Source: Escherichia coli
Lineage (GTDB): Bacteria; Pseudomonadota; Gammaproteobacteria; Enterobacterales; Enterobacteriaceae
Length of the DNA stretch: 64,000 nt
Reading direction: 5' to 3' (one strand)
Assembly (NCBI RefSeq): GCF_050320075.1
Contig: NZ_CP190018.1
Position 1 is the stretch's first letter, and every line of letters starts with the position of its first letter. Below are positions 6,156 through 18,570 of the stretch, piece after piece. The position numbers were made by a program, and so were the translations under genes. The notes under the pieces are model-generated. The model worked only from the letters and a program-made list of their open reading frames with translations. It searched no databases and was not told where the DNA came from.

Positions 6156-6249
6156 TTATCTTTTTGATTTATAAAGATCTGATTGAAGAATCAACAGCAA
6201 CATGCCAGGATGAGTTAGCGAATTACACTAACAAGTGGCGAATTTCATC

Positions 6250-7227
6250 ATGGCAGAATACAAAGATAATTTACTCGGTGAGGCGAACAGCTTTCTCGAA
6301 GTGCTGGAACAGGTTTCGCATCTCGCACCGCTGGACAAACCGGTGCTCATCATCGGCGAGCGCGGCACAGGTAAAGAGCTGATTGCCAGCCGTCTGCATT
6401 ATCTCTCCTCCCGTTGGCAGGGGCCGTTTATTTCCCTTAACTGCGCGGCGTTAAATGAAAATCTGCTGGATTCCGAACTGTTTGGTCACGAAGCGGGCGC
6501 GTTTACCGGTGCGCAAAAACGTCATCCAGGGAGATTTGAACGTGCCGACGGCGGTACGCTATTTCTTGATGAACTCGCTACGGCACCGATGATGGTGCAG
6601 GAGAAATTATTGCGCGTGATTGAGTACGGTGAACTGGAGCGCGTTGGCGGCAGCCAGCCATTGCAGGTGAATGTGCGGTTGGTATGCGCGACGAATGCCG
6701 ATCTCCCGGCGATGGTCAATGAAGGTACTTTTCGCGCTGACCTGCTCGACCGGCTGGCTTTCGATGTAGTGCAACTGCCGCCCCTGCGCGAGCGCGAAAG
6801 CGACATTATGCTGATGGCAGAACACTTTGCCATTCAGATGTGTCGGGAAATCAAGCTGCCTCTGTTCCCGGGGTTTACGGAGCGCGCCAGAGAAACATTG
6901 CTGAATTATCGCTGGCCGGGAAATATTCGTGAATTGAAAAACGTGGTGGAACGTTCAGTATATCGCCACGGCACCAGCGATTATCCGCTTGATGACATTA
7001 TTATTGATCCCTTTAAACGGCGTCCGCCTGAAGACGCTATCGCCGTTTCAGAAACCACCTCGCTTCCAACACTGCCGCTGGATTTACGTGAGTTTCAGAT
7101 GCAGCAGGAAAAAGAGTTGCTGCAACTCAGTTTGCAACAAGGGAAATATAACCAGAAGCGCGCAGCTGAATTGCTGGGGTTAACCTATCATCAGTTCCGC
7201 GCGTTGTTGAAAAAGCACCAGATTTAG
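6250..7227 (+). CDS. pspF: Sigma-54-dependent activator PspF (AAA+ enhancer-binding protein)
   Basis: Track ORF 6235..7227 begins at a GTG; the in-frame ATG at 6250 (MAEYKDNLLGEANSFLEV...) gives 325 aa as in K-12; GAFTGA motif present; divergent from pspA. Confidence 0.9.
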   Translation: MAEYKDNLLGEANSFLEVLEQVSHLAPLDKPVLIIGERGTGKELIASRLHYLSSRWQGPFISLNCAALNENLLDSELFGHEAGAFTGAQKRHPGRFERADGGTLFLDELATAPMMVQEKLLRVIEYGELERVGGSQPLQVNVRLVCATNADLPAMVNEGTFRADLLDRLAFDVVQLPPLRERESDIMLMAEHFAIQMCREIKLPLFPGFTERARETLLNYRWPGNIRELKNVVERSVYRHGTSDYPLDDIIIDPFKRRPPEDAIAVSETTSLPTLPLDLREFQMQQEKELLQLSLQQGKYNQKRAAELLGLTYHQFRALLKKHQI

Positions 7228-7248
7228 CGAAGTTGGGCAATACAACTT

Positions 7249-7330
7249 GCCGGATGCGGCGTGAATGCTTTGTCCGGCATACATAATCAATACGTCGTTT
7301 GCAGGCCTGATAAGCGCAGCGCATCAGACA
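7249..7330. repeat. Two REP (repetitive extragenic palindromic) units forming a BIME between pspF and puuE
   Basis: gccggatgcggcgtgaatgctttgtccggcatac and gcaggcctgataagcgcagcgcatcag match the canonical E. coli REP consensus in opposite orientations. Coordinates approximate. Confidence 0.7.
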
Positions 7331-7346
7331 TTATTGCGTTGGGCTA

Positions 7347-8612
7347 TTAATCGTTCAGCGCATCCTGCAATATTTTCATTGCCGCATCGAATTGCGCATC
7401 CGGGATGGTCAGCGGATACAGGAAACGAATCACGTTGCCGTATGCGCCACAGGTCAGCAGAAGCAGCCCCTGCGCCAGCGCGCGTTGCTGGATTTTCTGT
7501 GCAATCGCCGCTGACGGCTCGCCCGTTTGCGGATCGTTAAACTCTGCCGCAATCATAGACCCCAGACCGCGTACCGCCGCGATGGACGGAACGCTTTCTT
7601 TGGCATCAATCAGCGTGTTTGTCAGACGCTGGCCCAGTTGATTCGCGCGTTCGCAGAGTGATTCTTTGTCGATAATGTTGAGCACCGCGTGCGCGGCAGC
7701 CACCGCCAGCGGGTTCCCGGCGTAGGTACCACCAAGCCCGCCCGGCGCGGGTGCGTCCATAATGTTGGCATTACCGACCACGCCCGAAAGCGGCATCCCG
7801 CCCGCGAGGCTTTTCGCCATCGTCATTAAATCCGGCTTATCGGCGTAGTGATCCATGGCAAACAGTTTACCGGTACGCGCAAAGCCGCTTTGCACTTCAT
7901 CGGCAATCATCACAATGCCGTGATCGTCGCACAGGCGGCGAATGGCGGCAACCAGCTCTTTTGGTGCAACGTTGAAACCGCCTTCGCCCTGCACCGGTTC
8001 GAAAATAATCGCCGCCACCTGCTTCGCTTCAATGTCCGATTTAAACAAGCGTTCGATGGCGTCGAGGGAGTCCTGCGTTGAAATGCCGTGTAAATCTGAC
8101 GGATAAGGTACGTGATATACCGAACCGGGGAACGGGCCGAAGCCGATTTTGTACGGCGCGACCTTTCCGGTCAGCGCCATAGTCATATATGTACGACCGT
8201 GGAAGCCGCCGCTAAACGCAATCACGCCAGGGCGTCCGGTATGGGCGCGGGCGATTTTCACCGCGTTCTCAACCGCTTCCGCACCGGTGGTGAAGAACGC
8301 AGTTTTAGCCTGCCCGCTCACCGGGGCAAGGGCGTTAATTTTCTCCGCCAGCGTGACGTAGCTTTCGTACGGCACAATCTGATACGCCGTGTGGGTAAAC
8401 TGTTGCAATTGCTGCTCCACCGCCGCGACCAGATCAGGGTGGCGATGCCCGGTATTCAGCACCGCAATGCCTGCGGCGAAATCGATATATTCGTTGCCCT
8501 CTACATCCTTCAGCGTAGCGTTTTCTGCCGACTGGGCGAAGAAGTTACACATCACGCCAACCCCGCGTGGGGTAGCAGAAAGACGACGCTGATGGAATTC
8601 ATTGTTGCTCAT
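7347..8612 (-). CDS. puuE: 4-aminobutyrate aminotransferase (PLP-dependent), putrescine utilisation pathway
   Basis: 421 aa, MSNNEFHQRRLSATPRGVGVM...; class-III aminotransferase; position after puuB. Confidence 0.9.
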   Translation of the reverse strand: MSNNEFHQRRLSATPRGVGVMCNFFAQSAENATLKDVEGNEYIDFAAGIAVLNTGHRHPDLVAAVEQQLQQFTHTAYQIVPYESYVTLAEKINALAPVSGQAKTAFFTTGAEAVENAVKIARAHTGRPGVIAFSGGFHGRTYMTMALTGKVAPYKIGFGPFPGSVYHVPYPSDLHGISTQDSLDAIERLFKSDIEAKQVAAIIFEPVQGEGGFNVAPKELVAAIRRLCDDHGIVMIADEVQSGFARTGKLFAMDHYADKPDLMTMAKSLAGGMPLSGVVGNANIMDAPAPGGLGGTYAGNPLAVAAAHAVLNIIDKESLCERANQLGQRLTNTLIDAKESVPSIAAVRGLGSMIAAEFNDPQTGEPSAAIAQKIQQRALAQGLLLLTCGAYGNVIRFLYPLTIPDAQFDAAMKILQDALND

Positions 8613-8649
8613 GTTTCACACCTTTTGACTCTTCACTGTTAATCGGAAA

Positions 8650-9930
8650 TTAAACGCCCAGACGATCGCGCAGGCTGTAATAAGCCGCGCCCATCGCGGT
8701 AAACGGAACGCGCAGCGTGCGCCCGCCGGGGAACGGGTAATGCGGCAGATTGGCGAAGGCGTCGAAGCGTTCGGCGTCACCGCGCAGCAGTTCAACAATC
8801 AAACGCCCGGCAAGATGGGTACAGGTGACGCCGTGGCCGCTGTAACCCTGCATGTAATAGATGTTGGTATCAAGGCGACCGAACTGCGGCATGCGCGACA
8901 AGGTCAGCAGGAAGTTGCCCGTCCAGCGGTAATCAATTTTCACGCCCTTCAGCTGCGGGAAGGTTTTCAGCAGTTTCGGCACCACAAGGCGCTCAACGTC
9001 ATCCGGGTCGCGCGCGCCGTAGACCACACCGCCGCCGTACAGCAGGCGGTTATCGGCGGTAAGACGGTAGTAATCAAGCAGATAGTTACAGTCTTCCACA
9101 CAGTAGTTTTTCGGGATCAGCGAACGGGCTAAATCTTCCGACAGCCGTTCAGTGGTGATCACCTGCGTGCCGCACGGCATGCTGCGTTTCGCCAGTTCCG
9201 GCTCTACTTTATCGCCCAGATACGCATTCCCGGCGACAATCACATACTTCGCCGTCACCTGACCATTGGCAGTCCGCACCACGGCTGGCGTGGTGTGCTG
9301 GATCTGCGTCACGGCGGAAAGCTCATACACGCGCCCTCCGTTCAGGCGGATGGCATCGGCTTCACCAATGGCGAGGTTTAGCGGGTGAATATGCCCACCG
9401 CTGTGATCCAGAAGCGCACCAGTGTAGCGATCGCTGGCGACCTCGCGGCGAATAGCGTTGGCGTCCAGCAGCTCCAGCTGTTTATTGCCGTAGCGTTCCC
9501 AGTTCTCTTTCTGCTCTTCCAGAGTCGCGAGCTGTTTATCATTCATCGCCACAAACAGGCCGCCGGGGCGGTAGTCGCAATCAATCTGATAACGTTTGAT
9601 ACGTTCGCGGATGATCTCGCCGCCTTCGAACATCATGCTGCCGAGCATACGGGCGGTGTCCATGCCGTAGCTTTTTTCAATGACGTCGATGTCGCGGCTG
9701 TAGGAGTTCACAAGCTGCCCGCCGTTGCGTCCGCTTGCGCCGAAGCCGATGCGTGAGGCTTCAAGAACCACCACGTCAAAGCCCGCTTCCGCCAGATGCA
9801 GCGCGGAGGAAAGCCCGGTATAGCCGCCGCCGACCACGCAAACATCGCAGGAAATCGACTCATTCAGCGTGTCGAATGGTGCGTATTTATTCGCACTGGC
9901 GGCGTAATAACTGCTGGTATGTTCGGTCAT
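8650..9930 (-). CDS. puuB: Gamma-glutamylputrescine oxidase (FAD-dependent)
   Basis: 426 aa with N-terminal FAD-binding motif VCVVGGGYTGLSSA. Confidence 0.9.
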   Translation of the reverse strand: MTEHTSSYYAASANKYAPFDTLNESISCDVCVVGGGYTGLSSALHLAEAGFDVVVLEASRIGFGASGRNGGQLVNSYSRDIDVIEKSYGMDTARMLGSMMFEGGEIIRERIKRYQIDCDYRPGGLFVAMNDKQLATLEEQKENWERYGNKQLELLDANAIRREVASDRYTGALLDHSGGHIHPLNLAIGEADAIRLNGGRVYELSAVTQIQHTTPAVVRTANGQVTAKYVIVAGNAYLGDKVEPELAKRSMPCGTQVITTERLSEDLARSLIPKNYCVEDCNYLLDYYRLTADNRLLYGGGVVYGARDPDDVERLVVPKLLKTFPQLKGVKIDYRWTGNFLLTLSRMPQFGRLDTNIYYMQGYSGHGVTCTHLAGRLIVELLRGDAERFDAFANLPHYPFPGGRTLRVPFTAMGAAYYSLRDRLGV

Positions 9931-9931
9931 T

Positions 9932-11419
9932 TCAGGCCTCCAGGCTTATCCAGATAGTTTTCAGTTCGGTGAATTTTTCAAGGGCGTGCAGGGATTTGTC
10001 GCGACCATTGCCGCTCTGCTTATAGCCGCCAAACGGCACGGTCATATCGCCGTCGTTGTAGTTATTGACAAAGACGGAACCGGCTTTCAGGCGACGGCTC
10101 ATGCGGTGCGCGCGGGAGAGGTCGCGCGTCCATACTGCCGCGCCAAGTCCGTACTGGCTGTCGTTAGCAAGCTGTAGCGCCTGTTCTTCTGATGTGAAAC
10201 GCGTGACCACCAGCACTGGACCGAAAATCTCTTCGCGGCTTAAGGACGCATTCGGGTCTACATCCACAAAGATCGTCGGGCCGATGGCGGCAGCCAGCTC
10301 GGCGTTACGGCCATCCAGCAGCAGTTGCCCTTTGCTTTCGCCTTCACGAATAAAGCTATGGACCGAGTCGGCGTGGGCGCAGTCGATTAAGGTGCCCATG
10401 GTGGTTGCGGGATCAAGTGGATGGCCCGGCTGCCAGTTTTGCGCCTGCTGTTTTAACAGGTCTAAGAATTCATCGGCGATGCTCTCTTCCAGCAACAGGC
10501 GCGTTCCGGCGATACACACCTGCCCCTGGTTGTAGAAGATGCCTGCTGCGGTCGCGCTCGCCGCTTTTTGCAAATCCGGACAGTCAGCGAAAACGATGTT
10601 GGCGCTTTTGCCGCCCGCTTCCAGCCAGACGCGTTTCATGTTGCTGTCGCCTGCATCTTTCAGCAGCTGTTTCCCGGTACGGGTCGAACCGGTAAAGGCG
10701 ATGGCATCGATATCGTTATGACGCGACAGCGCCTGCCCCGCTTCATGACCAAAACCCGTCACCACGTTCAACACGCCATCCGGCAGACCTGCTTCTTTCG
10801 CCAGCCCGGCGAGACGAATCGCACTGAGCGGTGATTTTTCAGACGGTTTTAGGATCACGCTGTTTCCCGCCGCCAGCGCCGGGCCGAGTTTCCAGCAAGT
10901 CAGCAGCAGCGGGAAGTTCCACGGCACGATGGCGGCAATCACGCCGACCGGTTCACGCACGATCATCGCCAGCTCATGGCTACTGGTGGTCGCCACTTCG
11001 CCATACACTTTGTCGATAGCCTCGGTGTACCAGCGAATGGCGCGCGCCGCGCCGGGAATATCATCACGCAGGCTGTGACGAATCGGTTTGCCGGTGTCGA
11101 GCGTTTCCAGCAGCGCCAGCTCTTCGGCGTTGGCTTCCATAAAATCGGCGAGTTTATTCAGTACCGCTTTACGTTTAGCCGGAGAAGAGAGTGACCAGTC
11201 GCCGCGTTCAAATACGCCGCGTGCTGCGCTCACCGCACGGTCGATATCGACGCTCTTGCCGCGGGCAATTTTCGCCAGCGGTGCCTGGGTGACCGGATCA
11301 ACGGTTTCAAAAGTTTCATTTTCCGCCGCAGCAGTATATTCACCGTTAATAAATAAGCGGGTTTCAATGGCGAGACTTAACGCTTTATCCTGCCAGTAAG
11401 CCAGATGATGAAAATTCAT
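9932..11419 (-). CDS. puuC: Gamma-glutamyl-gamma-aminobutyraldehyde dehydrogenase (NAD(P)-dependent aldehyde dehydrogenase)
   Basis: Track ORF extends to 11515, but the in-frame ATG at 11419 (MNFHHLAYWQDKALSLAIETRLFINGEY...) gives 495 aa as in K-12 PuuC. Confidence 0.9.
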   Translation of the reverse strand: MNFHHLAYWQDKALSLAIETRLFINGEYTAAAENETFETVDPVTQAPLAKIARGKSVDIDRAVSAARGVFERGDWSLSSPAKRKAVLNKLADFMEANAEELALLETLDTGKPIRHSLRDDIPGAARAIRWYTEAIDKVYGEVATTSSHELAMIVREPVGVIAAIVPWNFPLLLTCWKLGPALAAGNSVILKPSEKSPLSAIRLAGLAKEAGLPDGVLNVVTGFGHEAGQALSRHNDIDAIAFTGSTRTGKQLLKDAGDSNMKRVWLEAGGKSANIVFADCPDLQKAASATAAGIFYNQGQVCIAGTRLLLEESIADEFLDLLKQQAQNWQPGHPLDPATTMGTLIDCAHADSVHSFIREGESKGQLLLDGRNAELAAAIGPTIFVDVDPNASLSREEIFGPVLVVTRFTSEEQALQLANDSQYGLGAAVWTRDLSRAHRMSRRLKAGSVFVNNYNDGDMTVPFGGYKQSGNGRDKSLHALEKFTELKTIWISLEA

Positions 11420-11568
11420 TATGACTCCTGTTTCACGTCTATCAGATATATGCAGTTTGTGAACGTCAGGGCGCAGAGATCCCCGGGCCGTATGCCCGTT
11501 TATTTCTGGCGACATTCTTTATAGATTGCCGGGCGCATTGCGCTTACCCGGCTTACAGAACAAAAAGA

Positions 11569-12126
11569 TTAAAACGTGGTGGGCGTATGGGCGCTGATAA
11601 TTCGGCAAATACCTGCCGACGTATTACTGAAACTGTGCGGGATGCCGGTATTAATGGCATAACTTTGCCCCGCGACGAGGTGGTAATCCTGACCATTAAT
11701 CGTCAGAACAATTTCACCTTCCAGTACAGTGCCTATTTCCTCACCCTGATGCTTAATTCTTTCCCCAGTGGTTGTGCCCGGCTGGTAAGTTTCAAAGATC
11801 ATCGCCAGCGTGCGATTCGGGTTACCGTTATGAACCAGCTTCATTGACACACCCTGACTGCCCATCTCAATTAAGTCGTCCTGATTAATGACGACCTGCG
11901 GCTCATCAGGTTTTTCCGGCTCGGAAAAGAATTCCGAGAGTGACAGACCATACACCTTCAGCAGCTTTTGCAGCGTACTGATGGCAGGGCTGACTTTATC
12001 TTGTTCTATCGTACTGATAGCACTGTGAGTCAGCCCGGAGAGTTCGGCGGCACGACGTTGTGAAAGCCCCTGCTGCTGGCGGATTTCCGACAAGCGTTTT
12101 CCTGGCGCCAGTCCCTCATCACTCAT
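11569..12126 (-). CDS. puuR: HTH/cupin repressor of the puu genes
   Basis: 185 aa, N-terminal XRE-type HTH (LSQRRAAELSGLTHSAISTIEQ) plus C-terminal cupin; synteny. Confidence 0.9.
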   Translation of the reverse strand: MSDEGLAPGKRLSEIRQQQGLSQRRAAELSGLTHSAISTIEQDKVSPAISTLQKLLKVYGLSLSEFFSEPEKPDEPQVVINQDDLIEMGSQGVSMKLVHNGNPNRTLAMIFETYQPGTTTGERIKHQGEEIGTVLEGEIVLTINGQDYHLVAGQSYAINTGIPHSFSNTSAGICRIISAHTPTTF

Positions 12127-12152
12127 ATTTGCATTTCCTTAAACTGTAGTGG

Positions 12153-12917
12153 TCAGAGTCGCTGTTTTTCAGCGATATGGTGCTGACAAGCGGTGATAAA
12201 GCCCTCGAACAATATACGCGAAAGCGCGTACTCGCTACTGTTCCATTCCGGGTGCCACTGTACGCCCAGCGCAAAAGGATGATTGATGACGCTAACCGCC
12301 TCAACTAAGCCATCCGGCGAGCGAGCTTCAACACGCAACCGTGGGCTAACGACCTTTGCCCCTTGTCCATGCAGAGAGTTTACCCAAAAGTTGCTACATT
12401 CAGGTAACAACGCAGACAGTAATCCCCCCTCTTCAACCAGAACTTCATGCGACGGCGCATATTGCTGCTCCACCGGCAGTTCGGGATCTTCCCGATGTTC
12501 CAGCAATTCAGGCTGTTCGCACAGCTTGCGATGCAACGAACCACCGGTTGCCACCACCAGTTCCTGTAAACCCCGGCAGATGGCGAAAATGGGGATGCGC
12601 CTTTCGAGTGCGGCATTAATTAACGCCATGCTCAGAAGATCACGCCCGGGATCGGCGTCAGGCTCATCGCCGTTTTCACCATATAGGTGCGGCTGCACAT
12701 TGCTGGGACTACCAGGAAGATAAATACCATCGAGTTTCGGCAAAAGTTGTTCAAGTAATGACGGTTCCGCCAGCGCATGTGGCAGCGCAATTGGCAAGCC
12801 GCCTGCGTGGATGATGGCATTCAGGTACTTTTCTTGCAGAGTCTGGGTCGCATGACCCTTAAGCCTGTTCCTGCACATTACGACACCGATAACCGGATTG
12901 TTCATTATATTTTCCAT
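12153..12917 (-). CDS. puuD: Gamma-glutamyl-GABA hydrolase (class-I glutamine amidotransferase-like)
   Basis: In-frame ATG at 12917 (MENIMNNPVIGVV...) gives 254 aa. Confidence 0.9.
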   Translation of the reverse strand: MENIMNNPVIGVVMCRNRLKGHATQTLQEKYLNAIIHAGGLPIALPHALAEPSLLEQLLPKLDGIYLPGSPSNVQPHLYGENGDEPDADPGRDLLSMALINAALERRIPIFAICRGLQELVVATGGSLHRKLCEQPELLEHREDPELPVEQQYAPSHEVLVEEGGLLSALLPECSNFWVNSLHGQGAKVVSPRLRVEARSPDGLVEAVSVINHPFALGVQWHPEWNSSEYALSRILFEGFITACQHHIAEKQRL

Positions 12918-13128
12918 GCTCAATCTCACAAAGTGGACTAAATTATCGCCATTACTGCGCTTTAAATGACCTTTATGTTCAATATTTTTTCAATCTAGCA
13001 GTGGGTTTTCATTTTTGCAAACTCAATTTAACATTTGACAAACATTTAGTTTGCATACAGATTCGAATGGTGGTCATTATATTTTACGCTTTGATAACGA
13101 GCGGAAAACAAACCAAAGGCGAAGAATC

Positions 13129-14547
13129 ATGGAAACCAATATCGTTGAAGTAGAGAACTTTGTTCAGCAGTCAGAAGAGAGGCGGGGTAGCGCCTTTACG
13201 CAGGAAGTGAAACGCTACCTGGAGCGCTACCCGAATACACAATATGTTGATGTTTTACTTACCGATTTGAATGGTTGCTTCCGTGGAAAACGTATTCCTG
13301 TTTCAAGCCTTAAGAAGCTCGAGAAAGGGTGTTATTTCCCGGCCTCGGTATTTGCAATGGATATTCTGGGTAATGTAGTAGAAGAAGCGGGCCTGGGTCA
13401 GGAAATGGGCGAGCCGGATCGTACCTGTGTTCCTGTTCTCGGTTCCTTAACCCCTTCTGCCGCCGATCCAGAGTTTATAGGTCAGATGCTCCTGACCATG
13501 GTCGATGAAGATGGCGCTCCCTTTGACGTTGAGCCGCGGAACGTTCTTAACCGCCTGTGGCAGCAGCTGCGCCAGCGCGGATTGTTCCCGGTCGTAGCGG
13601 TAGAGCTGGAGTTCTATTTACTGGATCGCCAGCGCGACGCTGAAGGGTATCTGCAACCGCCCTGCGCGCCCGGCACCGATGACCGCAATACACAAAGCCA
13701 GGTTTACTCCGTTGATAACCTCAACCACTTCGCCGACGTGCTCAATGATATTGATGAGCTGGCGCAGTTACAGCTGATTCCGGCAGATGGCGCGGTCGCC
13801 GAGGCCTCGCCAGGTCAGTTTGAAATCAATCTTTACCATACCGATAACGTGCTGGAAGCTTGCGATGATGCGCTGGCACTAAAACGCCTGGTGCGTCTGA
13901 TGGCAGAAAAGCATAAGATGCACGCCACTTTTATGGCGAAGCCGTATGAAGAGCACGCGGGCAGCGGGATGCATATCCATATCAGTATGCAAAATAACCG
14001 TGGCGAGAACGTGCTTTCTGACGCGGAAGGCGAAGATTCGCCGCTGCTGAAAAAGATGCTCGCCGGGATGATTGACCTGATGCCGTCATCAATGGCGTTG
14101 CTGGCACCAAACGTGAACTCGTATCGCCGCTTCCAGCCGGGAATGTATGTGCCGACGCAGGCGTCGTGGGGCCATAACAACCGCACCGTCGCCCTGCGTA
14201 TTCCCTGCGGCGATCGCCATAATCACCGCGTGGAATATCGCGTGGCGGGTGCCGATGCCAACCCGTATCTGGTGATGGCGGCGATTTTTGCCGGTATTTT
14301 GCATGGCCTTGATAACGAACTGCCATTACAGGAAGAAGTCGAAGGCAACGGGCTGGAACAGGAAGGCTTACCCTTCCCGATTCGCCAGAGCGATGCCCTG
14401 GGTGAGTTTATCGAGAATGATCACCTGCGCCGCTATTTAGGCGAACGCTTCTGCCATGTCTATCACGCCTGTAAAAATGATGAGCTGTTGCAGTTTGAGC
14501 GCCTCATCACAGAAACAGAAATTGAGTGGATGTTGAAAAACGCGTAA
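13129..14547 (+). CDS. puuA: Glutamate–putrescine ligase (glutamine-synthetase family)
   Basis: Track ORF starts at a TTG at 13051; the in-frame ATG at 13129 (METNIVEVENFVQQ...) preceded by a purine-rich stretch gives 472 aa; divergent from puuD. Confidence 0.9.
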   Translation: METNIVEVENFVQQSEERRGSAFTQEVKRYLERYPNTQYVDVLLTDLNGCFRGKRIPVSSLKKLEKGCYFPASVFAMDILGNVVEEAGLGQEMGEPDRTCVPVLGSLTPSAADPEFIGQMLLTMVDEDGAPFDVEPRNVLNRLWQQLRQRGLFPVVAVELEFYLLDRQRDAEGYLQPPCAPGTDDRNTQSQVYSVDNLNHFADVLNDIDELAQLQLIPADGAVAEASPGQFEINLYHTDNVLEACDDALALKRLVRLMAEKHKMHATFMAKPYEEHAGSGMHIHISMQNNRGENVLSDAEGEDSPLLKKMLAGMIDLMPSSMALLAPNVNSYRRFQPGMYVPTQASWGHNNRTVALRIPCGDRHNHRVEYRVAGADANPYLVMAAIFAGILHGLDNELPLQEEVEGNGLEQEGLPFPIRQSDALGEFIENDHLRRYLGERFCHVYHACKNDELLQFERLITETEIEWMLKNA

Positions 14548-14849
14548 TACCCCTTGCGGGGTTGTTTCATCGGCCTGAGCGGAGCCAGGCCTGACATTTG
14601 CTGGTAATCCAGACATTTCCCGGATGTCGCGTTATGGAGCGCAGGCGGCAACGGGCTTCCGTTAACGATTAAGACTGTGACGAGGAAATGAGATGATGCC
14701 GATGATTAAATCCCCGCATGGCGAGGGAGGCTGCGTATGCGCCCCTCCTGCGACTGACTGGACTCCGCCCCCTTTGCTTCCCTTGCTAAACAGGTTTGAT
14801 TTCAGGTCGACACGACCGCAAACCTTATTACGCAGGGGAGGCAGCAACT

Positions 14850-16235
14850 ATGGCTATTAATTCATCACTGACTATTGCTGCGCAATCTGGCAAAACCCGT
14901 CTGCGAAAATCACTGAAATTGTGGCAGGTGGTGATGATGGGTCTGGCCTATCTCACGCCGATGACCGTATTTGATACTTTTGGTATTGTCTCCGGCATTA
15001 GCGACGGTCACGTTCCGGCGTCCTATTTGCTGGCGCTGGCGGGCGTGCTGTTTACCGCTATCAGCTACGGCAAACTGGTTCGCCAGTTTCCGGAGGCCGG
15101 TTCGGCCTATACCTACGCGCAAAAGTCGATTAACCCGCACGTCGGATTTATGGTCGGCTGGTCATCACTGCTGGATTATCTCTTTTTGCCAATGATCAAC
15201 GTTTTGTTGGCGAAAATCTATCTCTCCGCCCTCTTCCCGGAAGTGCCGCCGTGGGTGTGGGTGGTAACCTTCGTCGCCATTTTAACCGCCGCGAATCTGA
15301 AGAGCGTCAACCTGGTCGCTAACTTCAATACCCTGTTTGTACTGGTGCAAATCTCCATCATGGTGGTGTTTATCTTCCTGGTGGTTCAGGGACTGCATAA
15401 AGGAGAAGGCGTTGGCACCGTCTGGTCACTTCAGCCGTTTATCAGCGAGAACGCGCACCTGATCCCGATTATTACCGGGGCGACGATTGTCTGTTTCTCC
15501 TTCCTCGGTTTCGATGCGGTGACCACGCTTTCGGAAGAGACGCCGGACGCCGCACGCGTGATCCCGAAAGCCATCTTCCTGACGGCGGTATACGGCGGCG
15601 TTATCTTTATCGCTGCGTCGTTCTTTATGCAGCTGTTCTTTCCCGATATCAGCCGCTTTAAAGACCCGGACGCCGCACTGCCTGAAATTGCGCTATACGT
15701 CGGCGGCAAGCTCTTCCAGTCGATTTTCCTCTGTACCACGTTTGTGAACACGTTAGCGTCTGGCCTGGCGTCGCACGCCAGCGTGTCGCGTCTGCTGTAT
15801 GTGATGGGGCGTGACAATGTGTTTCCGGAGCGCGTGTTTGGCTATGTGCACCCGAAATGGCGGACTCCGGCACTGAACGTCATTATGGTCGGGATTGTCG
15901 CGTTGTCAGCGCTGTTCTTTGATTTAGTCACCGCGACAGCATTGATTAACTTCGGTGCTCTGGTGGCATTTACCTTCGTAAATCTGTCGGTGTTTAATCA
16001 TTTCTGGCGGCGTAAAGGAATGAATAAAAGCTGGAAGGATCACTTCCACTATTTGCTGATGCCGCTGGTTGGCGCGCTGACGGTGGGTGTGCTGTGGGTT
16101 AATCTCGAGTCAACGTCACTGACACTCGGTCTGGTATGGGCTTCGTTAGGCGGCGCATATTTGTGGTATCTGATCCGCCGCTATCGCAAAGTGCCGTTGT
16201 ATGATGGTGACAGAGCGCCGGTGAGCGAAACGTAA
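14850..16235 (+). CDS. puuP: Putrescine importer (APC-family amino-acid/polyamine permease)
   Basis: In-frame ATG at 14850 ([22 protein letters not shown]...) preceded by aggggagg gives 461 aa; multi-TM hydrophobic protein. Confidence 0.9.
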
Positions 16236-16368: not shown

Positions 16369-16614
16369 ATGAACCACGATATCCCGCTAAAATATTTTGA
16401 TATTGCCGATGAGTACGCGACCGAATGCGCAGAGCCTGTCGCAGACGCTGAACGCACACCGCTGGCCCTCTACTTCCAGTTACTGCTCACCCGTTTGATG
16501 AACAATGAAGAGATCAGCGAAGAAGCCCAACATGAAATGGCTGCTGAAGCGGGGATTAATCCCGTACGCATTGATGAGATCGCAGAGTTTTTGAATCAAT
16601 GGGGTAATGAGTAA
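16369..16614 (+). CDS. ymjA: Small protein YmjA (DUF2543)
   Basis: 81 aa, [40 protein letters not shown]...; synteny between puuP and sapA. Confidence 0.8.
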
Positions 16615-16647
16615 TTATTTCATTGCAGACGCTCGGTCAGTATCGTT

Positions 16648-16679
16648 GCCCGGATAAAGCGTTCACGCCGCATCCGGCT
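16648..16679. repeat. REP element downstream of ymjA
   Basis: gcccggataaagcgttcacgccgcatccggc matches the REP consensus. Coordinates approximate. Confidence 0.65.
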
Positions 16680-16926: not shown

Positions 16927-18570
16927 ATGCGCCAGGTATTATCGTCTCTTTTGGTGATTGCTGGACTTGTGAGTGGTCAGGCAATCGCCGCGCCTGAATC
17001 CCCCCCGCATGCTGATATCCGCGATAGCGGTTTTGTCTATTGCGTCAGCGGGCAAGTCAACACCTTTAACCCATCCAAAGCGAGCAGTGGGTTAATTGTC
17101 GATACCCTTGCCGCCCAGTTTTATGATCGACTGCTGGATGTCGATCCCTATACCTATCGCCTGATGCCGGAACTTGCCGAAAGCTGGGAAGTTCTCGACA
17201 ACGGCGCGACCTATCGCTTCCACCTGCGTCGCGATGTTCCGTTTCAAAAAACCGACTGGTTTACTCCCACTCGTAAAATGAATGCCGACGATGTGGTGTT
17301 TACCTTCCAGCGAATTTTTGACCGCAACAACCCGTGGCATAACGTCAACGGCAGCAACTTCCCCTACTTCGACAGCCTGCAATTTGCCGATAACGTGAAA
17401 AGCGTCCGCAAACTGGATAATCATACGGTTGAGTTCCGACTCGCCCAGCCGGATGCTTCTTTTTTGTGGCACCTGGCGACCCATTATGCATCGGTCATGT
17501 CGGCAGAATATGCCCGGAAGTTAGAGAAAGAAGATCGTCAGGAACAACTCGACCGTCAGCCGGTCGGCACTGGACCGTATCAGTTGTCGGAATACCGCGC
17601 CGGGCAATATATTCGCTTACAACGTCATGATGATTTCTGGCGTGGTAAGCCGTTGATGCCACAAGTGGTGGTGGATTTAGGCTCTGGCGGTACCGGACGT
17701 CTGTCGAAACTCCTGACCGGGGAGTGCGACGTTCTGGCCTGGCCTGCTGCCAGTCAGCTATCCATTTTGCGTGACGACCCACGCTTGCGTTTAACGCTGC
17801 GTCCTGGGATGAACGTCGCCTATCTGGCATTCAACACCGCCAAACCGCCGCTAAATAATCCCGCTGTCCGCCATGCGCTGGCACTGGCGATTAATAACCA
17901 GCGTCTGATGCAATCCATCTATTATGGTACGGCTGAAACGGCAGCCTCTATTTTACCGCGCGCCTCGTGGGCCTATGACAACGAGGCTAAAATTACTGAA
18001 TATAATCCGGCGAAATCGCGCGAACAGTTGAAGGCGTTGGGGCTGGAAAACTTAACGCTGAAACTGTGGGTACCAACACGTTCGCAGGCGTGGAACCCCA
18101 GTCCACTGAAAACTGCCGAATTGATTCAGGCGGATATGGCACAGGTTGGCGTAAAAGTGGTGATTGTGCCGGTAGAAGGTCGCTTTCAGGAGGCGCGGTT
18201 GATGGATATGAGCCATGATCTGACGTTATCCGGTTGGGCGACTGACAGTAACGACCCGGACAGTTTCTTCCGTCCGTTACTGAGCTGCGCGGCAATTCAT
18301 TCGCAGACCAACCTCGCCCACTGGTGCGATCCGAAATTCGACAGCGTGTTGCGTAAGGCGCTCTCCTCGCAGCAGCTGGCGGCGCGTATTGAAGCCTATG
18401 ACGAAGCGCAGAGTATTCTGGCGCAGGAATTACCCATTCTGCCGCTGGCGTCGTCATTGCGCTTGCAGGCCTATCGGTATGATATCAAAGGTCTGGTACT
18501 TAGTCCGTTTGGTAACGCCTCCTTTGCTGGGGTGTATCGCGAGAAACCGGATGAGGTGAAAAAACCATGA
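16927..18570 (+). CDS. sapA: ABC transporter periplasmic substrate-binding protein SapA
   Basis: 547 aa with signal peptide ([21 protein letters not shown]); family-5 solute-binding protein; first of sapABCDF. Confidence 0.9.

Follow-up and report, generated by a model that had tools for sequence, protein, structure and literature searches.

The 119-bp interval between the convergent genes pspF and puuE of Escherichia coli is almost certainly occupied by an old, vertically inherited and degenerate BIME. A Y REP and an inverted Z1 REP, one of each, face each other tail to tail across an 18-nt linker that is private to this locus. This element probably acts mainly at the RNA level (rough probability 0.6), where its hairpins would protect the 3' ends of the pspF and puuE mRNAs. 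The pair is ordinary, is known in kind and has reportedly been described at this locus. The analysis covered a 64-kb stretch of DNA (the window), to which all positions refer unless another record is named. The junction is laid out as follows.

6235–7227, + strand: pspF coding sequence, TAG stop at 7225–7227 (ORF list; RefSeq annotation of the 100%-identical and K-12 matches)
7228–7229: spacer CG between the pspF stop and the small hairpin
7230–7248, + strand: small hairpin AAGTTGGGCAATACAACTT (inverted repeat, RNA fold)
7248–7282, + strand: Y REP TGCCGGATGCGGCGTGAATGCTTTGTCCGGCATAC, head to pspF, tail (CATAC, a degenerate CTAC) to the linker
7283–7300: linker ATAATCAATACGTCGTTT, 18 nt, tail-to-tail, locus-specific, containing the IHF-like core AATCAATACGTCG at 7285–7297
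7301–7330, − strand: Z1 REP GCAGGCCTGATAAGCGCAGCGCATCAGACA in inverse orientation, tail (GCAG, a degenerate GTAG) to the linker, head to puuE
7331–7346: right spacer TTATTGCGTTGGGCTA, 16 nt, from the Z1 head to the puuE stop, with an 11-bp length polymorphism
7347–8612, − strand: puuE coding sequence, stop at 7347–7349 (ORF list; RefSeq annotation)

The REP pair at the pspF–puuE junction

According to both the ORF list and the RefSeq annotation, positions 7228–7346 make up the entire non-coding interval between the two stop codons, in exact agreement with the earlier note, which had described a REP pair filling the convergent pspF–puuE gap. The tblastn identities to the K-12 and O55:H7 loci are 99.7–100% for pspF and 98.6–98.8% for puuE. 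A 371-nt query that spans the gap is matched in 5421 of 5426 complete E. coli genomes, in which the RefSeq genes at this place are pspF and puuE. Strain CFSAN061763 is 100% identical across this query, and the K-12 record agrees on pspF/puuE and lists no REP features at the junction. A 41-nt query centred on the linker is positive at the pspF–puuE locus in 5420/5426 genomes, which bears out the remark that the element is ordinary for E. coli. The pair is fixed in the species and is carried by essentially every genome. A few genomes have two matching places, and six to seven places fall on plasmid-typed E. coli records. Among 120 loci from a pattern scan of other species (described below), none was an orthologous pspF locus; only paralogous sigma-54 activators were present. 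Two mechanically called ORFs overlap the gap (7127–7324, − strand, 65 aa; 7265–7540, + strand, 91 aa) and run antisense through the annotated genes and the REPs.

The Y, Z1 and Z2 REP consensus sequences used here follow Bachellier and colleagues. The Y REP on the + strand agrees with its consensus at 31 of 35 positions (4 mismatches), and the Z1 REP in inverse orientation agrees at 27 of 30 (3 mismatches). In 100 dinucleotide-preserving shuffles of the window, neither the Y nor the Z1 consensus was matched at the limit of ≤3 mismatches. No part of the pair matches the Z2 consensus within 20% mismatches. A second, independent consensus was derived by scanning one genome per species for a Y tail and a Z1 tail separated by 5–35 nt, which yielded 45 canonical Y-L-Z1 copies in other enterobacteria; E. 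albertii and Pseudocitrobacter faecalis contribute most of those with a 35-nt linker. At the bases that the search pattern leaves unfixed, this empirical consensus is matched by the Y body at 23 of 27 positions and by the Z1 body at 12 of 14. The two REPs stand in opposite orientation, Y (+) and Z1 (−), tail to tail and 18 nt apart, and thus form a BIME in the generic sense, as had been proposed. Within 20% mismatches of the consensus, the only other REP in the 64 kb is a solitary Y-type unit at 16645–16679 (− strand; 4/35 mismatches, foot GTTG for GTAG), located between an 81-aa ORF (16369–16614, the counterpart of ymjA of other strains) and the 547-aa sapA ORF (16927–18570).

The earlier note also called both REPs canonical. 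They do match the Y and Z1 consensus sequences, but they are degenerate, and the GTAG/CTAC foot is mutated in both. The Y foot reads CATAC in place of CCTAC (GTAT replacing GTAG), and three further substitutions lie in the Y stem. The Z1 foot (7301–7304) reads GCAG in place of GTAG. Among the natural alleles compared below, CCTAC is intact in Tig207 and s2547, and the Z1 GTAG is seen in Tig207 only. That Tig207 has both feet intact suggests decay from a canonical ancestor.

The Y assignment is also supported by an insertion in a natural strain. In Z1323PEC0014, an IS3 element of the IS1397 family (L005 3167–4593, equivalent to window position ~7265) occupies the loop of the Y REP (GCGTGAA / IS / GAACGC). 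It is bounded by imperfect terminal inverted repeats (TGAACTGAACCCC / TGAACTGCACCCC) and has duplicated 3 bp, GAA. According to the title of ref. 10 in PMC3333891, IS1397 inserts specifically into the palindromic units of BIMEs, so its presence in this loop argues for a genuine REP.

The Y REP is wholly extragenic, located between the pspF and puuE stop codons. As RNA, its hairpin has a folding energy of −18.0 kcal/mol in the pspF sense (z −3.3) and −13.7 kcal/mol in the antisense. As DNA, it folds with −8.4 kcal/mol (z −2.6), and it keeps the conserved G·T and C·T positions. The Z1 hairpin gives −10.5 kcal/mol in the puuE sense (z −1.4, unexceptional compared to shuffles) and −6.3 kcal/mol in the pspF sense; A7328 replaces a consensus G and breaks one pair in the + sense. 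Each REP thus forms its stronger hairpin in RNA transcribed from the neighbouring gene. The small pspF-proximal hairpin noted earlier is real: it begins 2 nt past the pspF stop and has a 6-bp stem, AAGTTG/CAACTT (7230–7235 with 7243–7248), a 7-nt loop, and an RNA fold of −5.4 kcal/mol (z = −2.6). No U-run follows its stem on the 3' side, and no intrinsic terminator was called there. Folds of the whole gap are unremarkable relative to shuffles (z −1.3 and −0.9).

The right spacer differs in length between lineages by 11 bp (GGGC versus a GCCCCTGCTTCTGCG-type sequence, L002 1735–1758), with other lineages carrying an extra CCCTGCTTCTGCG-type segment. Z1 is thus 16 nt away from the puuE stop here, and 27 nt away where the 11-bp insertion is present. 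A 10-nt direct repeat that flanks the pair (GTTGGGCAAT / GTTGGGCTAT) was considered as a target-site duplication and rejected: by our own estimate, a 221-nt region should contain about one 9/10 match of this kind by chance, and its right copy is found solely in the 11-bp-deletion alleles.

The linker and the relationship to known BIME classes

As defined by Ton-Hoang et al. (PMC3333891), BIME-1 elements consist of one z1 and one y REP in single copy with a long conserved L linker that often carries an IHF site. BIME-2 elements consist of y and z2 REPs in tandem (PMC3333891, PMC2817692), with a short S linker. The pspF–puuE element is similar to BIME-1 in being a single Y + Z1 pair in inverse, tail-to-tail orientation at the 3' ends of transcription units, with an IHF-consensus-like core between the tails. 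It differs in several respects. Its linker is 18 nt long compared to ~35 nt and lacks the conserved core AAATTCAATATATTGCAG; it is single-copy, the canonical outer flanks are missing, and both GTAG feet are mutated.

These differences are borne out by direct comparison with the empirical L linker, which is 35 nt long (AAAATCGTGCAAATTCAATATATTGCAGAAACCTT, 39 copies). Alignment of the pspF–puuE linker to the L consensus is no better than that of shuffles, 1128 of 2000 of which equalled its score. A position weight matrix (PWM) of the L core scores the linker at −3.6 (family median 27.1), again no better than shuffles, and flank matrices built on 45 reference copies give −5.0 on the left (family median 25.8) and −0.9 on the right (family median 20.1), neither above shuffles. 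With the 41-nt linker query, the median number of matching places in an E. coli genome is 1; for an L-consensus query of the same length, run at the same settings as a positive control and counted up to 40 places per genome, it is 26. A canonical BIME-1 with the L motif is therefore rejected on linker length, core, flanks and copy number. With neither an L linker nor BIME-1 flanks, IHF binding cannot be assumed from class membership.

Another parallel is a minority class of Y–Z1 pairs with short linkers in E. albertii (e.g. L017, L032, L035 and L037), in which, as here, a Y tail is followed by a non-conserved linker of 12–25 nt and a Z1 tail. The linker of L037 (AAAATCAATAAATTCCGCAGGTTTT) resembles L with a 10-nt internal deletion, and its start, AATCAATA, is shared with the pspF–puuE linker, but the linkers of this class and the one studied here show no demonstrable homology. 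That the pspF–puuE linker arose from L by deletion is no more than conjecture.

Two features of the L-bearing reference loci are worth recording. In E. albertii, canonical Y-L-Z1 units also occur in 3–4 tandem copies (L021 3662–4162 and L042 1479–1891, with ~147-nt and ~177-nt spacing), a small departure from the single-copy BIME-1 described for E. coli (PMC3333891). A 262-bp record labelled Desulfosporosinus sp. OT (L051, NZ_AGAF01000060.1) carries a perfect enterobacterial Y-L-Z1 BIME-1 and is most likely contaminating Escherichia-like DNA.

The Y REP and the alternating REP orientation are shared with BIME-2, but here the partner is Z1 rather than Z2 and the pair is single rather than tandem. 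The inverted doublet with a short spacer recalls the REPIN doublets associated with RAYT (TnpA_REP) proteins (PMC2817692), from which the pspF–puuE pair differs in lacking GTAG on both REPs and in residing at a fixed, vertically inherited locus. The latter property means that there is no sign of recent mobility. Since TnpA_REP needs GTAG in order to bind and cleave (PMC3333891), and both feet are mutated, the pair is probably no longer mobilisable. Membership in a known RNA family was rejected as well: the best scores against naRNA4 (Rfam RF02564) were 19.5, 13.8 and 13.6 bits, all below the gathering threshold of 59.5, and reflect only the resemblance of REP hairpins.

A DNA-level role through the binding of IHF to the linker is possible. 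In this reading, the element would be a RIB/RIP-type BIME-1 whose linker DNA is bent by IHF; the bound site would serve as a roadblock, mark a domain boundary or modulate termination between the two converging units. The composition, a single tail-to-tail Y + Z1 pair, is that of BIME-1, in which the linker frequently bears an IHF site (PMC3333891, PMC2817692). The sequence AATCAATACGTCG (7285–7297) matches the IHF consensus WATCAANNNNTTR with one mismatch, and the linker is the least variable segment of the element. However, one-mismatch matches occur about once per kb in the 64-kb window (71 observed versus 54 expected), and a core found at chance frequency does not suffice, as sequence, to establish an IHF site. 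Furthermore, the WATCAA box is altered in natural alleles, by a 2-bp deletion in 13P484A and by an A-to-T change in Tig207, and the linker is unlike the L motif in length, core and copy number. Taken together, these points leave IHF binding as a tentative alternative that deserves to be taken seriously. Two adjacent one-mismatch matches to the same consensus (AATCAAAAAGATA, AATCAGATCTTTA) lie at 6157–6184 (− strand) in the divergent pspA–pspF promoter region, where the psp promoter has a known IHF site.

In 1997 Jovanovic and Model (J Bacteriol) reportedly described a RIB element between goaG (puuE) and pspF, and are said to have observed IHF binding to this region and an effect on pspF transcripts. 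Such binding would favour the IHF reading. A full-text literature search found no description of a RIB or BIME at pspF, and the supplementary tables examined (Term-seq, REP and IHF-ChIP) mention neither pspF nor puuE.

Variation among natural alleles

Fifteen loci were compared and reduced to ten distinct alleles, all of which carry the REP pair at the same place. Their variable columns are distributed as follows.

Y REP: 11/35
Z1 REP: 9/30
Linker: 4/18, including the 2-bp deletion in the core of 13P484A
Right spacer, including the 11-bp indel: 14/25
pspF 3' coding flank: 33/320
puuE 3' coding flank: 48/320

About 30% of the columns in the REP bodies are variable, compared to 10–15% in the coding flanks. 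The REPs thus evolve faster than the genes around them, which fits relaxed constraint.

The pattern of change in the Y stem is asymmetric between strands. Over the ten alleles, 97.5% of the cells of the Y helix are paired in the pspF-sense RNA versus 76.7% in the antisense. Six independent-looking transitions fall in this stem, each of which results in G·U in pspF-sense RNA; in the antisense, none does. Transitions of the same classes in the flanks divide 28:27, which gives a Fisher p of 0.03 against 6:0, with the caveat that the six events were chosen post hoc. The Z1 transitions show no polarity (4:3), and pooling of both REPs (10:3 versus 28:27) gives p = 0.12, which is not significant. The polarity of the Y stem is a weak hint of selection at the RNA level and not a result. 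Compensatory covariation is limited, among the ten alleles, to one path from G-C through G-U to A-U. The small hairpin has 94.8% of its cells paired across these alleles, without covariation.

These data bear on the second serious alternative, namely that the pair is a neutral relic: a selfish REP doublet that long ago entered a permissive gap between convergent genes, now immobile and decaying, with any effects on pspF and puuE being incidental. The mutated GTAG feet of most alleles, intact in the divergent Tig207, agree with this, as do the high variability of the REP bodies and the indels in the linker and the right spacer. The loss of hairpin stability points the same way. The near-consensus Y allele of O55:H7 folds with −22.9 kcal/mol in the pspF sense and −21.9 kcal/mol in the antisense, so that the Y hairpin of the window is weaker by 4.9 and 8.2 kcal/mol, respectively.

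A further argument for a passenger comes from B2-type strains such as ATCC 25922. There, a deletion of ~8.7 kb (window 7410–16131) starts within puuE and takes out what remains of the puu cluster, so that the ymjA–sapA region directly adjoins pspF, the BIME and the last 63 nt of puuE (L003 3318–3321; also L004, L127 and L129). The puuE remnant is annotated by RefSeq as a partial hypothetical protein. The REP pair is unchanged in these strains, so its puuE-side role, at least, is dispensable in them.

On the other side, the pair has never been lost (5420/5426 genomes), the transitions of the Y stem are biased towards keeping the pspF-sense pairing, and a function has reportedly been found by experiment (Jovanovic and Model 1997). 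On balance, a purely neutral element appears somewhat doubtful. Both serious alternatives, the relic and the IHF site, are compatible with a role of the pair in protecting mRNA 3' ends.

Probable transcript ends and their consequences

Protection of the pspF and puuE mRNA 3' ends is the best-supported mechanism for the element, and three properties of the gap suggest it: the predicted hairpins, their strand asymmetry, and the lack of intrinsic terminators. No stem-loop followed by a T-run was found within 7228–7346 on either strand, terminator-like calls being confined to coding sequences; an intrinsic terminator in the gap is therefore rejected, and transcription from either side probably enters or crosses the REP pair. 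In E. coli, genome-wide 3'-end mapping places the steady-state ends of Rho-terminated transcripts at stable stem-loops without U-tails, REPs among them, which protect the RNA against PNPase and RNase II (PMC6061677). The REPs described here are similar to such stabilisers in being G+C-rich imperfect hairpins that lack a U-tail and lie just 3' of stop codons, and by this likeness may play the same role.

The sequence of events at the junction would then be as follows. Transcription from each side would be ended by Rho or by convergent traffic, and 3'-to-5' exonucleases would trim the RNA back to the first stable stem-loop. In the pspF mRNA, the Y REP hairpin would be this stop, and the small hairpin upstream of it would act as a further, minor one; in the puuCBE mRNA, the weaker Z1 hairpin would have this part. 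The REP hairpins would in this way set and stabilise both mRNA 3' ends.

A more elaborate version of the same idea is that the BIME has been domesticated: having lost its mobility, it would retain the Y REP as an RNA hairpin for pspF and the private linker as an IHF site, which would jointly tune PspF dosage. This is speculative and rather unlikely. If true, it would mean that substitutions in the Y REP are tolerated only when they produce G·U in the pspF sense, and that the set-point of the phage-shock response is tuned by the element.

The REP pair might instead act as a bidirectional terminator or attenuator, in which the hairpins halt RNA polymerase whichever side it comes from, on their own or as an aid to Rho. 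Such a function would suit the convergent geometry and the presence of hairpins on both strands, and a link between BIMEs and Rho-dependent attenuation has been reported (Espeli et al. 2001, cited in PMC6061677). It is nevertheless unlikely given that neither strand of the gap contains a stem-loop with a T-run and that, in the general model, Rho ends transcription at points downstream of the protective REPs (PMC6061677).

Translational down-regulation, in which a REP near the stop codon stalls the terminating ribosome and triggers tmRNA action, is very improbable. The rule, reportedly set out by Liang, Rudd and Deutscher in 2015, is a REP within ~15 nt of the stop. The Z1 REP is 16 nt from the puuE stop and the small hairpin begins 2 nt past that of pspF, but the Y REP is 21 nt away from the latter, and the Z1 distance (16 versus 27 nt, depending on the lineage) shows that REP-to-stop spacing is not conserved.

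Equally little speaks for a strong gyrase binding and cleavage site that would relieve positive supercoils between the two genes: gyrase does prefer Y-type REPs and BIMEs (PMC6379681) and convergent transcription builds up positive supercoiling, but the enrichment is documented for tandem Y + Z2 BIME-2 elements (PMC6379681, PMC2817692), so that, contrary to the gyrase remark of the earlier note, it is not expected for a lone Y + Z1 pair in which nothing matches Z2.

For annotation, the element is best recorded as a degenerate Y/Z1 REP pair, neither a canonical IHF-binding BIME-1 nor a gyrase-binding BIME-2. Beyond annotation its importance is slight, REPs and BIMEs being among the best known bacterial repeats. 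The locus does show an old REP pair that is decaying, through loss of GTAG and transitions in its stems, yet is fixed in the species. PspF is a low-abundance activator that is made constitutively, so the stability of the pspF mRNA 3' end could matter for the Psp response, and the Y hairpin would be a sensible target for any study of pspF dosage.
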